Assembly (NCBI GenBank): GCA_049517415.1
Contig: JBEKSC010000024.1
Location: 1 to 44,265, forward strand
Length of the DNA stretch: 44,265 nt
DNA from: Candidatus Bathyarchaeia archaeon
GTDB taxonomy: Archaea > Thermoproteota > Bathyarchaeia > 40CM-2-53-6
Direction: 5' to 3'
The position numbers and the translations under genes are program-made. Under the pieces are notes generated by a model. The model was not told the origin of the DNA, searched no databases, and saw only the letters and a list, made by a program, of their open reading frames with translations. This document shows positions 4,564-25,802 of this stretch, in pieces (position 1 is the first letter of the stretch; the number at the start of each line of letters is the position of its first letter).

Positions 4564-4896
4564 TTGTACAAGGTGAATGTGAGCAGTGTTGCGGATGCTC
4601 CAGTTACGGAGGAAGGCTCCAAAGGAACGAGAATAAAATGGGTCATCAATGAAAAAGACGGAGCTCCTACCTTTCTCATGCGCCAGTTCACTCTCGAACC
4701 AGGCGGTTTCACACCCTACCACAAACACGATTGGGAACATGAGGTATACATCCTTGAGGGACAAGGCAAGGTTCGATACGAGAACCGTGAGGAGCCAATC
4801 CAACCCGGGGACGCCATCCTAATCCCGCCCGGCAAAACACATCAGTTCCAAGCGGGCACCGTCGGCCTGAAGTTTCTCTGCATGATACCTAAATGA
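4564..4896 (+). CDS. Cupin domain protein
   Basis: PYHKHDWEHEVYILEG and PGDAILIPPGKTH cupin motifs. Confidence 0.9.
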   Translation: MYKVNVSSVADAPVTEEGSKGTRIKWVINEKDGAPTFLMRQFTLEPGGFTPYHKHDWEHEVYILEGQGKVRYENREEPIQPGDAILIPPGKTHQFQAGTVGLKFLCMIPK

Positions 4897-5208
4897 AAAC
4901 AGGGAAATCACCGCCACCAGGTTACTCCAAGAACTGCAACTTTGATCTTCTAGAGTGAACGAACAACCCTAGGTTGGTTGGGATTCCTTGGAGCCTGCTT
5001 TCGCACGTGCTTAGGAGTGGGTGTGGATGGTTTAATTTTGTGAGGAACATGTTACTTCATCGCGCTTGTGATGGCGTTTCCAGTAGTGGGTGAGGCCGTT
5101 TGGGCACACCCCTTGGGAGGGTACTCGCCCACCTTCGCAGTCTCGTGGTCTCATGGGGTTCGGGTGTATTTCACCAATCATTGGTGGGAATTGGTGGGGC
5201 CGAAGGGA

Positions 5209-5233
5209 TTCTCATGGTTCTGGGGTGAACCAT
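5209..5233 (-). other. tRNA-Trp intron 5 (position 59/60, 25 nt)
   Basis: BHB: TTCA AA|A TGGTTC..GAACCA TGAG AA|T CCC. Confidence 0.9.
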
Positions 5234-5247
5234 TTTGAACCCTCGAC

Positions 5248-5266
5248 TTCCGCCATGCCGTCATGT
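5248..5266 (-). other. tRNA-Trp intron 4 (position 45/46, 19 nt)
   Basis: BHB: CCGT AG|A CATG..CATG GCGG AA|G. Confidence 0.85.
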
Positions 5267-5274
5267 CTACGGGT

Positions 5275-5335
5275 TTCTTCGCTCCTGAAGTTCGTCATTC
5301 CGTTCAGGTCCGCAAACCCGTTAAGGTTTGGTCTT
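5275..5335 (-). ncRNA. tRNA-Trp intron 3 (37/38, 61 nt), putative box C/D guide RNA for Cm34 and Cm39
   Basis: Guide ACGGGTTT + D'-like CGGA, C'-like ATGACGA, guide CTTCAGGAGC + D-like AAGA; the N+5 rule lands on C39 and C34. Confidence 0.7.
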
Positions 5336-5344
5336 CTGGAGCCC

Positions 5345-5363
5345 TTGGCGGGAACGTATCCCT
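5345..5363 (-). other. tRNA-Trp intron 2 (position 28/29, 19 nt)
   Basis: Relaxed BHB: GACG AC|A GGGA..TTCC CGCC AA|G with one A.C mismatch; removal restores the 5-bp anticodon stem. Confidence 0.75.
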
Positions 5364-5382
5364 GTCGTCATCCCTGGCTAGA

Positions 5383-5410
5383 GACCGTCACTCCCGAATG
5401 GTCACAGTGT
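5383..5410 (-). other. tRNA-Trp intron 1 (position 10/11, 28 nt)
   Basis: BHB: CCGT AG|A CACT...AGTG ACGG TC|T; perfect 4-bp central helix. Confidence 0.85.
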
Positions 5411-5545
5411 CTACGGCCCCACATCGGAACCGACAAGGCGGCCCCATCCAAGTCACGCATAGCCAGTTGCTATATGGATTTTGGCTGATTCCGCTCAGGC
5501 CCGTCAAGTAGTAATACCGCAAAGCGGGAATTCTAGCCGGTCGCC

Positions 5546-6763
5546 TTGCTCAAGATTGGACTGATTGGGAAAACAAACGCAGGAAAAACTACCTTCTTCA
5601 ACGCGGCAACCCTACTCAGCGCTCCCGTCTCAACTTACCCCTTCACCACGAAGAAACCAAACGTTGGCCAAGCGTACGTTAAGACGATCTGCGTGTGCAG
5701 AGAAATGGGGGTCAAGGACAATCCTAGGAATTCATCTTGCATCGAAGGCGCTCGGTTTATCCCCATCCAGCTCATCGACCTCCCCGGCCTAATCAAAGGG
5801 TCATGGATGGGAAAAGGCCTCGGCACGCAATTTCTGAGCGTAGCATCACAGGCGGATGCTCTTATCCACATAGCGGATGCGTCAGGGAGCGTGGACGCGG
5901 ATGGAAAACTCACAAAGCCGGGGATGGGAAACCCTGTCGCTGACGTCTACGACATTGAAGAAGAGTTGGTTCGCTGGTTCGCCAAAGTAGTTGAGAAGAG
6001 CCTCAAAAAATTAAAAAAACATGCCAAGAAAGGTTCGTCCGTTGACCGGCTCTTCACGCAAGACCTAGCTGGGCTGAAGATTACCAGCGGACATGTTGCG
6101 AGGGCTTTGGAGGAGAACGCCCTCGAAGATAAAGACCTCGGGCGGTGGAGCCGTGAAGACGTTTGGGGCTACGCGAAGAGTATTAGGCAAATCTCGAAGC
6201 CGACCCTCATTATCGCGAACAAGATGGACCTCGCACACGCGGATAAGAATTACGTGAACCTGGTGAAGGAATTTGGCCAAGCATTCGTACTCCCCGCCTC
6301 GAGTGACGCGGAATTGGCTTTACGCCGCGCCGAGCAGAAAGGTTACATTGAGTACATTCCCGGCGAGGAAGTTTTCAAGGTCAAAAACAATGAGAAGTTG
6401 ACGACTGAGCAGAGGGAGGCCTTGACCTATGTTGAGCAGCGTGTTTTCTCGAAATGGATTCGAACTGGCGTGCAGTTCGCACTCAACACCTGCGTCTTCA
6501 AGCTGTTAAGTATGAACGTGGTTTATCCCGTAGAGGATATTGAGAAATTAGCTGACACAAGAGGCAACGTGCTCCCCGACGTTTTCCTCGTTCCCTACAG
6601 CGCTTCAGTCGGCGACTTGGCAGGCCAAGTCCATACTGATTTAGCGAAGACTATGCTTTACGCGGTTGACGCGCGAACGAAGATTCGTTTGCCTGCAGAT
6701 TATAGGTTGAAAGACCGGGACATCGTCACGATCGTAGCGGCTGCGAAGGGAAAATCAAACTAG
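5546..6763 (+). CDS. ychF: YchF/OLA1-like Obg-family NTPase (archaeal type, C-terminal TGS)
   Basis: GKTNAGKT, YPFTT, DLPG, NKMD motifs; TGS-like C-terminus. Confidence 0.9.
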   Translation: MLKIGLIGKTNAGKTTFFNAATLLSAPVSTYPFTTKKPNVGQAYVKTICVCREMGVKDNPRNSSCIEGARFIPIQLIDLPGLIKGSWMGKGLGTQFLSVASQADALIHIADASGSVDADGKLTKPGMGNPVADVYDIEEELVRWFAKVVEKSLKKLKKHAKKGSSVDRLFTQDLAGLKITSGHVARALEENALEDKDLGRWSREDVWGYAKSIRQISKPTLIIANKMDLAHADKNYVNLVKEFGQAFVLPASSDAELALRRAEQKGYIEYIPGEEVFKVKNNEKLTTEQREALTYVEQRVFSKWIRTGVQFALNTCVFKLLSMNVVYPVEDIEKLADTRGNVLPDVFLVPYSASVGDLAGQVHTDLAKTMLYAVDARTKIRLPADYRLKDRDIVTIVAAAKGKSN

Positions 6764-7320: not shown

Positions 7321-7483
7321 AGTCTGCAGACCTCTTTTCGAAGGGTATTCTTAGTAGAATACTTTCTTATCGCAAATTTATATTATAGGAATATCGGTCT
7401 TGCGGCAATAACTTGCCGGTGAATCGACATTGAGTAGAATTCGGAGCGCAGTTGGTTCTCCGTCTACGAATGTTGCTTTTGCA

Positions 7484-8656
7484 ATGAGCAATAAGCCTCG
7501 TTCATTCCTGTTTACGTCGGAAAGCGTAACTGAAGGTCACCCTGACAAAGTCGCGGACCAGATTTCGGACTCGATTCTTGATGCGATTATCGAGAAGGAC
7601 CCGAAATCCAGGGTCGATATTGAGACTCTAATAATGAAGGGCACGGTAATCGTCACAGGCCAAATATCTACCAACGCATACGTGCCAATCAATCAAATTG
7701 TTCGAAACGTCCTGAAGGATATTGGATTCGACAACGCAAAGGTAGGTCTCGACTGGGAAGCCTGCGGAGTCCTCGTCTCCATCGAAGAACAGTCTCCCGA
7801 CATTGCAATGGGCGTTGACAAGGAAGATATTGGCGCCGGCGATCAAGGGATGATGTTCGGTCATGCGACAAATGAGACGCCGGAGCTCATGCCGTTGCCT
7901 ATCATGCTAGCCCACAAGCTCGTGAGACGGCTCGCGGCTGTGCGAAAAGAGAAGCTGCTGCCTTACCTCCGGCCGGACGGAAAGTCGCAGGTCACTGTTG
8001 AATATGTGAATGACAAGCCAAGGAGGGTGGACGCAGTCGTCATTGCAGCCCAACATGACGATAATGTAAGCAGAGAACAAATGAGGATGGACATTATTGA
8101 GAAAGTAATCAAAGCAGTCATACCGGAAAGAATGCTCGACAACAATACCAAATTCTTCATCAACGAAACGGGTCGGTTCACCATCGGAGGAACACTCGCG
8201 GACACCGGATTGACGGGTAGGAAGATTATCGTAGACACCTACGGCGGAATCGGTAGCCATGGGGGCGGATGCTATTCTGGAAAAGATCCTACCAAAGTCG
8301 ACAGGTCGGGAAGCTACATGGCCAGGTATATTGCGAAGAACATCGTCGCCGCGGGGTTGGCTGACAAGTGTGATGTGCAAATTGCTTACGCCATTGGTGT
8401 CTCAAAACCGATATCGGTGATGGTCTACACGTATGGAACTGGGAAATTGCCGGACGAGGACATTACGGAGGCGGTAAAAGCAGTTTTCGATATGACTCCT
8501 AAAGGAATCATTGACCACCTCAAATTGCGCCGGCCGATATACCGGAAGACAGCCGCCTACGGACACTTTGGCCGTGACGACCCTGAATTTACTTGGGAAA
8601 GGACTGATAAGGTGGACGAGCTCAGAAAGAGGGCCCATTACAGTATGGATCATTGA
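7484..8656 (+). CDS. metK: S-adenosylmethionine synthetase, bacterial/eukaryotic type
   Basis: [54 protein letters not shown]. Confidence 0.97.
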
Positions 8657-12755: not shown

Positions 12756-13655
12756 TTGCGGTTGGGGAGAGGTTTGAGCGTAGACGACCGCTTCGAAGAG
12801 ATAAAACGTCTCCTCGACTCAACGATAAACGAGTTCCAAACACTTTTCGAGTCAGCGGGTGGCTTCGAAGATTCGCGGGTCGGAAACGGATGGGATCCTG
12901 GGAAGATAACCCCAGAGATTTATTACCTCCAACCGAAACCACTAGAGGAACTTAGCAAAATTGCGGAAGCGCGCAAACGGTCGCTGTTCAAAAACAGGGT
13001 TCTCTCATTTGTGAAACCCAAAGAGCAAGACGTACTAACCTCAGTAGAGCCGCGGCTAAAACTAGTACCATTTTGGAGACTCAAAGGCTACCATGAATGC
13101 TTCTATTTTAGGGGCAATTCATACAAGATTGATTTGCCCGAAGATGTGATAGCCGTAGAGGTCGAAGGTAAGATACGGGATCTTCTTGGGCAAGAATCAG
13201 TTGATACACAGGGCTTGTCAAATATTGCTAAACGGCTTCTTGGCAGAAAAGAGTGGGCTGGCGTAAAGTCAATCCGCTTGGGTGACGTAACAGAATTGGC
13301 CTACATGTACAAGGAAGGATCAATTTTCGTAGACGCCGAGGGCAAAGAGAACCTTGAGGCCGAAGCTTTCTTCGACCGCAACTTACCGCTTCAGAAGATT
13401 AGCGCGGATCAACTGGCAAAAGAGTTACCCGGCGCTGAATTAGGCAAGAGTTCGATGACGAAGGAAGACTTGGTCAGGAAACTTCATGCCATGGTTGTGA
13501 AACCACCAACTGCATTCTCGAAAATTCTCAGCAACCGCTACCAAATAACGCAGCTAGCGGAATATTTGATGCCTGTATATTCATTCATTTATGAATGGCG
13601 TGGGCAGAGAAAGGAACTCACAGTTCACGGGTACACTGGGGGAATTTTTCAGTAG
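12756..13655 (+). CDS. Hypothetical cytoplasmic protein
   Basis: ~300-aa ORF filling the gap; no recognisable motif; start uncertain. Confidence 0.7.
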   Translation: MRLGRGLSVDDRFEEIKRLLDSTINEFQTLFESAGGFEDSRVGNGWDPGKITPEIYYLQPKPLEELSKIAEARKRSLFKNRVLSFVKPKEQDVLTSVEPRLKLVPFWRLKGYHECFYFRGNSYKIDLPEDVIAVEVEGKIRDLLGQESVDTQGLSNIAKRLLGRKEWAGVKSIRLGDVTELAYMYKEGSIFVDAEGKENLEAEAFFDRNLPLQKISADQLAKELPGAELGKSSMTKEDLVRKLHAMVVKPPTAFSKILSNRYQITQLAEYLMPVYSFIYEWRGQRKELTVHGYTGGIFQ

Positions 13656-15148: not shown

Positions 15149-15272
15149 TGGCGCCGGGAGAGGGATTCGAACCCCCGAGGCCCGTAAGGGCCACAGGCTC
15201 GCGTTGATCTTTCACTCAAGGCCTGCGCCTCTGGACCAAGTCCGCACTGTTAATCCACTCGGCCATCCCGGC
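15149..15272 (-). tRNA. tRNA-Ser(UGA) with two introns (21/22: 15231-15250; ~37/38: 15200-15214), encoded CCA
   Basis: Acceptor GCCGGGA/TCCCGGC, G73, anticodon stem CAGGC/GCCTG with loop CTTGAGA after splicing, long variable arm GGCCC-TTAC-GGGCC, T arm GGGGG-TTCGAAT-CCCTC; D-loop BHB GGAT TA|A CAG..TTG GTCC AG|A. Confidence 0.92.
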
Positions 15273-25163: not shown

Positions 25164-25802
25164 ATGCAAACAGCCCAAACCCAAAGAACCGAGACAGGCT
25201 GGGTTCCCAAAACCAAAGTAGGCAGGATGGTTCAGACCGGACAGATAGTCTCCCTTGAAGATATCTTCACACAAGGATTGAAAATCAAAGAACCGGAAAT
25301 AGTCGACGTCCTCCTGCCCGGCCTCAGACAGGAAGTACTCGGTATAGGATTCGTGCAAAAACAAACCGATGCCGGCGAGAAATCACGCTTCAAAGCAATC
25401 GTAGCCGTAGGGAACGGCACCGGATTCCTAGGCGTCGGAGGCGGCAAAGCAAAACAGGTCAGAAACGCCATAGACAAAGCCACCATAACCGCCAAACTCG
25501 GCGTTGTTCCAATTCGCCGCGGTTGCGGCAGTTGGGAATGCGGTTGCGGCCAACCACATTCAATTCCATTCAAAATTCGAGGAAAGTGCGGCAGCGTCGC
25601 AATCGAAATCATCCCAGGCCCAAGAGGACTTGGGTTGGTCGGGGGAGAAACTCCGAAGACCGTTCTAACACTGGCAGGCGTCAAAGACTGCTGGACGAGA
25701 AGCTTCGGTTCAACGAACACACTCGGCTCCATGGCGTACGCGGTATACGAAGCCCTACGGAGCACGTACCGAGTCGTGACACCCCAAGACTGGGTTGCCT
25801 AG
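25164..25802 (+). CDS. rps5: 30S ribosomal protein uS5
   Basis: WVPKTKVG, QKQTDAG, RRGCGSWEC, PGPRGLGLV. Confidence 0.97.
   Translation: MQTAQTQRTETGWVPKTKVGRMVQTGQIVSLEDIFTQGLKIKEPEIVDVLLPGLRQEVLGIGFVQKQTDAGEKSRFKAIVAVGNGTGFLGVGGGKAKQVRNAIDKATITAKLGVVPIRRGCGSWECGCGQPHSIPFKIRGKCGSVAIEIIPGPRGLGLVGGETPKTVLTLAGVKDCWTRSFGSTNTLGSMAYAVYEALRSTYRVVTPQDWVA

Follow-up and report, generated by a model that had tools for sequence, protein, structure and literature searches.

The minus strand of the window, by which we mean the whole 44,265-nt stretch of DNA analysed, carries at 5420–5192 a pre-tRNA-Trp(CCA) gene of 229 nt, broken into six exons (10, 19, 9, 8, 14 and 17 nt) by five introns, with 152 of the 229 nt intronic. 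Its identification draws on an ARAGORN call for the joined exons, a dedicated parser, shuffled controls and relatives. All parts read on the minus strand. Exon 1 (5411–5420, tRNA positions 1–10), unchanged in 21 of 21 aligned genes, ends at a 28-nt intron at 10/11 (5383–5410) that forms a full bulge-helix-bulge (BHB) motif with a four-pair central helix and both outer helices. Exon 2 (5364–5382, positions 11–28) supplies the D arm and is followed at 28/29 by a 19-nt intron (5345–5363) with a relaxed BHB that keeps three of four central pairs; exon 3 (5336–5344, positions 29–37) bears the anticodon CCA at 5339–5337. The third intron, 61 nt long and also relaxed in its BHB, occupies the canonical 37/38 site (5275–5335) and is a probable methylation-guide RNA. 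Exon 4 (5267–5274, positions 38–45) precedes a 19-nt intron at 45/46 (5248–5266) with a four-pair central helix and an intron helix, without an exon helix; exon 5 (5234–5247, positions 46–59) precedes a 25-nt intron at 59/60 (5209–5233) with a full BHB, and exon 6 (5192–5208, positions 60–76) closes the gene with its encoded CCA.

On the plus strand, a cupin-domain gene (4564–4896) lies downstream, and a divergent Obg-like GTPase gene of the YGR210/YchF type (5546–6763) lies on the other side, with no functional link claimed. A tRNA-Trp gene was found on 9 of 18 loci fetched around relatives of this GTPase; among the nearest relatives, 15 of 18 loci belong to Candidatus Bathyarchaeia. The 60 nt upstream of the tRNA-Trp gene hold no AT-rich promoter box at the usual distance. 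Further along the window, a second tRNA gene, tRNA-Ser(TGA), lies on the minus strand at 15272–15149 with introns at 21/22 and 37/38 and is mislabeled as Phe by ARAGORN. An S-adenosylmethionine synthetase (7430–8656; Pfam PF00438/PF02772/PF02773) is present as well, which we take to be of the bacterial/eukaryotic type and not the usual archaeal one.

Gene parse and splicing motifs

The joined exons form a 77-nt cloverleaf with the features of an archaeal tRNA-Trp(CCA), including a CCA anticodon, T-loop consensus, paired acceptor stem and encoded 3' CCA, and ARAGORN calls it tRNA-Trp(cca). On the raw window, ARAGORN did not find the gene, and Rfam returned no match at gathering scores across the window and none at E ≤ 10 across 5150–5460. 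As a test of boundaries ARAGORN is weak, accepting many shifted or wrong boundary sets of this gene; because of this permissiveness we wrote our own structure-aware (pair-aware) parser, which allows free inserts, contains no BHB term and had as its training set 26 compact tRNAs of other genomes in Bathyarchaeia. One Bathyarchaeia bin with a cluster of bacterial-looking tRNA genes (L059, G131:C6), probably contamination, was kept out of the training set. Blind to splicing motifs, the parser arrived at these five inserts as well, except that it set the third at 36/37, one base away from the 37/38 to which the BHB register corrects it. The sequence-only reading had proposed these lengths (28, 19, 61, 19 and 25 nt) and positions and had staked itself on a well-scoring spliced product; the parser and the joined-exon call confirm the former, and that call likewise answers the latter.

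Counting central pairs (of four), exon-helix pairs and intron-helix pairs, the motifs read 4/2/4 (10/11), 3/1/4 (28/29), 3/3/0 (37/38), 4/0/4 (45/46) and 4/5/6 (59/60). The motifs at 10/11, 45/46 and 59/60 thus combine a four-pair central helix, bounded by 3-nt bulges, with one or both outer helices, and the remaining two motifs are relaxed, bearing out the earlier description of all five as strict or relaxed BHBs. When each intron was shuffled 20,000 times, the fraction matching the observed BHB score was 0.003 (10/11), 0.011 (28/29), 0.127 (37/38), 0.0025 (45/46) and 0.0004 (59/60); the 37/38 motif alone is not above chance, so this intron rests on its position and conservation. The central pair absent from the 28/29 motif of the window gene is A-U in 6 of 21 related genes, the 37/38 position at which C34 here faces A is paired in 6 of 21, and in the inner helix of the 10/11 intron two pairs have both partners altered, one pair in 7 and the other in 6 of the 21 genes. 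Across these 21 aligned genes, with the structure drawn from the window's own gene, the BHB pairs hold in 92.9% of 630 cells, 17 of which are altered on both sides, compared with 30–52% in slid controls; two of five covariation measures did not exceed shuffles in this set of non-independent kin.

A lineage-typical five-intron gene

Among 48 loci examined, 33 yielded complete tRNA-Trp genes, 28 of them distinct, and 15 gave no parse. Twenty-one distinct genes share the window's five intron sites; the mature tRNA is identical in 20 and differs by one base in the other. Intron identity among these same-site relatives drops to 0.43–0.69, with the exons near-invariant across two genera. The mature tRNA is 95–97% identical to those of Trp genes with fewer or other introns, and each of the four non-canonical introns is absent from some relatives, in which the exon sequence runs contiguously.

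For a broader survey, Trp genes were located with a sequence model of the anticodon intron and its flanks, with hits in 85 of the order's 105 genomes, 137 of 151 in a class sample and 54 of 151 in a phylum sample (32 outside the class); with the 37/38 intron as search handle, the survey covers only genes that carry it, and the class matches were fetched in part. In a further set of 104 loci, nine failed (contig ends or no anchor) and one was excluded as a second copy; by-eye correction set two genes at three introns instead of four (L183) and one instead of two (L190). In the order (n = 77), 41 Trp genes have five introns, 15 have four, 20 have three and one has two, whereas none of the 40 genes from other orders has five (range 1–4); no six-intron gene occurs among the 117 parsed. 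Five introns are therefore the commonest state of the tRNA-Trp gene in this Bathyarchaeia order. Six families contribute the five-intron genes, in some of which the first intron lies near 17/18 and not at 10/11. The 10/11 site, initially thought unusual, is common in the lineage: it is used by 44 of the 77 Trp genes of the order (2 of 40 elsewhere) and by tRNA-Glu(CTC) of this same genome. Species of one genus (g2, L149–L162) differ in the place of their first intron, some having it at 17/18 and others at 25/26. In family f8 (L109, L112, L124–L126) the 28/29 intron reaches 81–91 nt with long hairpins and could hide a nested intron or small RNA.

The genome bin (100% complete, 6.86% contamination, 59 contigs) encodes 46 tRNA genes that cover the expected anticodon set, and introns interrupt 45 of the 46. 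The total is ~109 introns (2.37 per gene), with at least two in 36 genes, at least four in eight and five in tRNA-Trp only; ambiguous loci were curated by hand, so that the totals could err by a few. No second tRNA-Trp gene emerged among 2,096 parsed candidates of the genome, the outcome anticipated by the sequence-only reading, and the five-intron locus is apparently the genome's only one. The expectation that standard finders would overlook the gene held for ARAGORN and Rfam, but its corollary, a genome reported to lack tRNA-Trp, did not, since ARAGORN with introns enabled places a false Trp call at tRNA-Arg(CCT); at lowered threshold this mode yields mostly noise on the genome. A forced-CCA reading at C6:94952 was likewise rejected, losing to tRNA-Pro(GGG) with four introns that all have four-pair helices.

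Several features of the wider tRNA set were recorded alongside. Position 33, near-universally U in tRNAs, is C in tRNA-Arg(CCT) (C2:49827–49679, L212) and, as parsed, in tRNA-Arg(TCT) (C1:94896–94774); for tRNA-Arg(CCT), most genus-mates also have C there, and several other relatives have U. Acceptor-stem introns with four-pair central helices occur in tRNA-Asp near 68/69 (C2:32586–32482) and in tRNA-Gly(CCC) at 3/4 (C37, minus strand, ending at 13443). Three Leu tRNA genes carry long inserts that may be nested or tandem introns (54 nt at C7:29750–29931, 63 nt at C5:2259–2456, 57 nt at C4:118814–119008). Extra tRNA 3' halves without a 5' half end at 15969 on C11 (plus strand) and, on minus strands, at 4186 on C35, 17338 on C34, 41984 on C16 and 55846 on C6; they are Ile2/Met-, Pro-, Leu- and Ile/Val-like, the Leu one retaining two introns, as expected for integrated-element attachment sites or bin contamination.

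The requirements for BHB introns, a broad-specificity splicing endonuclease (EndA) and the ligase RtcB, are encoded in the genome, which also has a fibrillarin gene. Of its two EndA genes, located on contigs C10 and C2, one encodes a 190-aa protein whose best PDB match is 3p1z_B/3ajv_B (E 7.5e-39), with the Tyr/His/Lys region kept and Lys43 and Lys45 aligned to Lys44 and Arg46 of that chain. Lys44 has been tied to broad specificity, and the loop residues with these numbers to cleavage of non-canonical introns, according to the available text of PMC3241643. The other gene encodes a 187-aa protein without the His motif, as would suit a structural subunit.

Small shares of 4900–5900 are present in 21 RNA runs from 15 studies. 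The four of these checked for contigs were chosen as containing the stretch, derive from related strains and may include DNA carry-over, and contigs built from them cannot show mature tRNA. Contigs lay on the tRNA-Trp gene in four of four runs checked (four studies), spanning 5192–5424 unspliced (X1), 5258–5422 at a depth of 563 (X2), 5199–5393 (X3) and 5260–5382 (X6). Two X6 contigs end where exon 2 begins (5382) and carry six unaligned letters apiece, which fits either a once-spliced intermediate or a merely divergent intron end; contig ends at 5422–5424 in two studies, just beyond the mature 5' end, give a weak hint of a short leader. RNA cover was absent from the flanks, to which no weight is given. 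No spliced junction appeared in the contigs of the four runs, where exons of 8–19 nt are too short to place. Since the RNA contigs hold only unspliced precursor, splicing is inferred.

Two readings compete with that of a working gene. Six exons of 8–19 nt leave much freedom, so that, together with ARAGORN's tolerance of wrong boundaries, five free gaps might produce a tRNA-like parse by chance, or an assembly artefact might. Set against this, the parser score of 50.6 far exceeds the best of 500 dinucleotide shuffles of the 229 nt (mean −20.1, maximum 3.0), and of 1,250 non-overlapping genome candidates none scores 25–30, everything below 25 being background or 3' fragments. The same architecture also recurs in the 41 genes of six families and in the RNA-library contigs; independent assemblies have already refuted this explanation, to which we assign a negligible probability. 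The locus might instead be a decayed or silent remnant, with Trp codons read by another gene such as that at C2:49827–49679, which ARAGORN calls Trp(cca) and which scores 78.8 when our parser is forced to CCA; the lack of a spliced RNA from the five-intron gene would also fit. This is very improbable, and C2:49827–49679 was rejected as a tRNA-Trp: its parse is a tRNA-Arg(CCT) that has three introns and G73 and supplies the one Arg anticodon otherwise absent, the conserved anticodon loop reads CCT at 30 of 30 orthologous loci, and a Trp reading would have to draw on intron sequence that varies. The near-invariant exons of the five-intron gene across two genera argue against decay as well. We therefore favor, with a probability of about 0.92, the reading that the locus is the cell's working tRNA-Trp gene, from which a single precursor would be made, its five introns cut by EndA and its exons joined by RtcB.

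The 61-nt anticodon intron as a candidate guide

From its 5' end, the 61-nt intron is laid out as a 9-nt guide, CGGA, a short hairpin, AUGACGA, a second guide and AAGA. The first guide (5313–5321, minus strand, as are all elements here) is complementary to tRNA positions 35–43 and places C39 opposite the fifth base before a box D'-like CGGA (5309–5312), which is CUGA in many relatives. A box C'-like AUGACGA follows at 5292–5298. The second guide (5280–5290) matches exon 3 and the beginning of the intron by complementarity, apart from a single mismatch opposite A36, and would target C34 if the AAGA at 5279–5276 serves as box D. These registers follow from the fifth-nucleotide rule, by which the first guide points to C39 and the second to C34; C34 and position 39 are the sites of the known Trp-intron guide described in the available text of PMC7994747.

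Across relatives this layout is widely kept. In the window gene all nine bases of the D' guide pair and C39 falls at −5; when the best-pairing NNGA of each gene is taken, 97 of 116 genes have seven or more of the nine pairs, with position 39 at that distance from the D' box. Of the 116, 110 have a D' box of the form CNGA and 111 have the second guide. A C'-like motif occurs in all 116, a partly circular count, as the motif was required as an anchor for one gene set. A box D (NNGA) in register for C34 is found in 38 of 116 genes, reading AAGA in the window and CUGA in one genus-mate. No box C was detected upstream of D' in any of the 116 genes, and UGANGA falls within the first 16 nt in one of 117. 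The heptamer AUGACGA of exon 2 (tRNA positions 21–27, 96 of 117 genes), identical to the C' box, was considered as a substitute box C and set aside, as it is a D-stem strand explained by tRNA structure. Seven parsed of nine loci from other Thermoproteota share the intron layout. In one genus (g2, L149–L162), the position-39 guide is down to 2–7 of 9 pairs, with the boxes and the C34 guide retained.

Does the intron act as a guide? The tRNA could be real and the intron inactive, its boxes being relics or kept for splicing structure only. The missing box C, the box D that is degenerate in the genus, the mismatch opposite A36, the D' guide worn down to 2–8 of 9 pairs in that sister genus and the failure to match any Rfam family even at E ≤ 10 all speak for this. 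It is nevertheless the most conserved of the five introns (0.84–1.00 identity within the genus, versus 0.57–0.93 for intron 1), and both complementary stretches share the register established for guides to C34 and position 39 (PMC7994747, as far as its available text goes). Also against inactivity, the 65-nt Trp intron of Sulfolobus solfataricus, according to the available text of PMC3326292, keeps two complementary stretches and forms a stable circle without consensus C and D boxes. Inactivity is on balance unlikely, and the 61-nt intron is probably active as a methylation guide. Judged from its sequence, it would work like sR50, although it is not a canonical C/D RNA, failing on box C.

The kinship with known Trp-intron guides, namely sR50 of Pyrococcus and its counterpart in Haloferax volcanii as partly sourced here, lies in the 37/38 site, the length of ~60 nt, the stretches complementary to the regions of 34 and 39, and the D' and C' motifs in the expected order. 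Unlike sR50, the window's intron has no box C and a weak box D, and is closer to the S. solfataricus Trp intron; unlike in known Trp introns, four further introns in the precursor flank the guide's targets.

Maturation, intron gain and known systems

In the maturation that we propose, the gene would be transcribed as one precursor, a broad-specificity (αβ)2 splicing endonuclease would cut the five BHB motifs and RtcB would join the exons. The motifs take up bases of the acceptor, D, anticodon and T arms and compete for them, so the introns probably leave one after another, with refolding in between; stepwise intron removal in multi-intron tRNAs has been described (available text of PMC8450103). 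Four introns would be short structural passengers gained in an order-wide intron expansion, and the 37/38 intron would be older, probably a Trp-intron methylation guide for C39 and perhaps C34.

In the full precursor, the energy to enforce each motif is 10.5 (10/11), 5.8 (28/29), 11.1 (37/38), 3.2 (45/46) and 3.9 kcal/mol (59/60). The 10/11 motif costs 9.4–11.2 kcal/mol in every intermediate given, and the cost of the 37/38 motif falls to 6.0 after removal of 28/29 and rises to 12.6 if 45/46 is removed first. In this protein-free energy model, the eight cheapest of 120 orders all place 28/29 before 37/38 and 37/38 before 45/46, weakly predicting removal of 28/29, then 37/38, then 45/46; the prediction is weak because the model is protein-free and the cheapest first cut is actually 45/46.

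The 10/11 and 45/46 sites follow the same six exon bases. In one order-mate (L145), the tRNA-Trp introns at these two sites (G059:C5:25499–25514 and 25627–25642) share 16 of 17 bases, and the shared 16-mer occurs at only those two places in that genome. This points to a copy made inside a single gene, with gene conversion or a faulty assembly as further possible causes of the match. An exact core copy between introns 1 and 4 was seen in this one of 39 genes, and none of 930 cross-family intron pairs reaches 0.9 core identity. Recent copying between introns 1 and 4 of the window gene was not supported (core identity 0.52 versus a cross-family mean of 0.42). A bolder idea, which we consider doubtful, joins these threads into a self-ordering maturation device: the 61-nt intron would be a 'half' C/D guide, with only C'/D' intact and kept across Bathyarchaeia and other Thermoproteota, that methylates its own host; the 28/29 and 45/46 introns would gate its release and the exposure of its targets, and the 10/11 intron would have been copied from 45/46 in the same gene. 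If true, such copying would be a route of intron gain outside those tested, as far as its available text goes, in the Asgard preprint considered below.

In older surveys and reviews, and in tRNAscan-SE 2.0, three introns are the archaeal maximum (PMC4033280, PMC8450103, in their available text), in agreement with the limit that the sequence-only reading had given. As in Thermoproteales (Pyrobaculum and kin), BHB introns here occupy canonical and non-canonical sites, several per gene and with removal in steps (Sugahara 2008, cited by PMC4033280, PMC8450103 and PMC4090602, as partly available), and we count as shared their (αβ)2 EndA with the Crenarchaea-specific loop. The two differ in load, with at most three introns per gene and a record of 71 introns in 46 genes there (same partial text of PMC4033280 and PMC8450103), against five and ~109 in 46 here. 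Asgard archaea come closer: the preprint (bioRxiv 10.64898/2026.10.13.758758) gives, in its available text, up to five inserts in one tRNA gene and a mean of 2.2 per gene, compared with five and ~2.4 here, with 45 of 46 genes interrupted. The two share near-universal interruption of tRNA genes, BHB boundaries and, often, a two-subunit EndA (preprint; PMC11291895, in part). The Asgard archaea belong to a different phylum. In the present order a single identified gene has five introns in six families; the main text of the preprint contains neither 'Bathy' nor 'Trp'. The description of this gene as an extreme multi-intron tRNA thus stands as to its five real introns, and not as a new record: the gene is real, extreme but lineage-typical, and ties the highest intron count found in print. 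We found no paper on tRNA introns of Bathyarchaeia in the open-access literature, most subscription papers lying outside the search; one Bathyarchaeia genome paper lists 36 tRNA genes, with introns unmentioned in its available text (PMC11697101).

What the analysis adds is an order-wide intron map, a candidate guide intron that lacks box C and one apparent case of within-gene intron duplication. For annotation, the true Trp gene of these genomes is missed and an Arg gene can be mislabeled as Trp. The box-C-less intron makes testable an open Sulfolobus question, whether such Trp introns guide methylation. Across 117 relatives, a single essential gene carries between one and five introns whose sites are mapped, a ready series in which to study how introns come and go and how one enzyme might splice them in order. 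This Bathyarchaeia order joins Thermoproteales and some Asgard families as a third lineage whose tRNA genes are extremely rich in introns.
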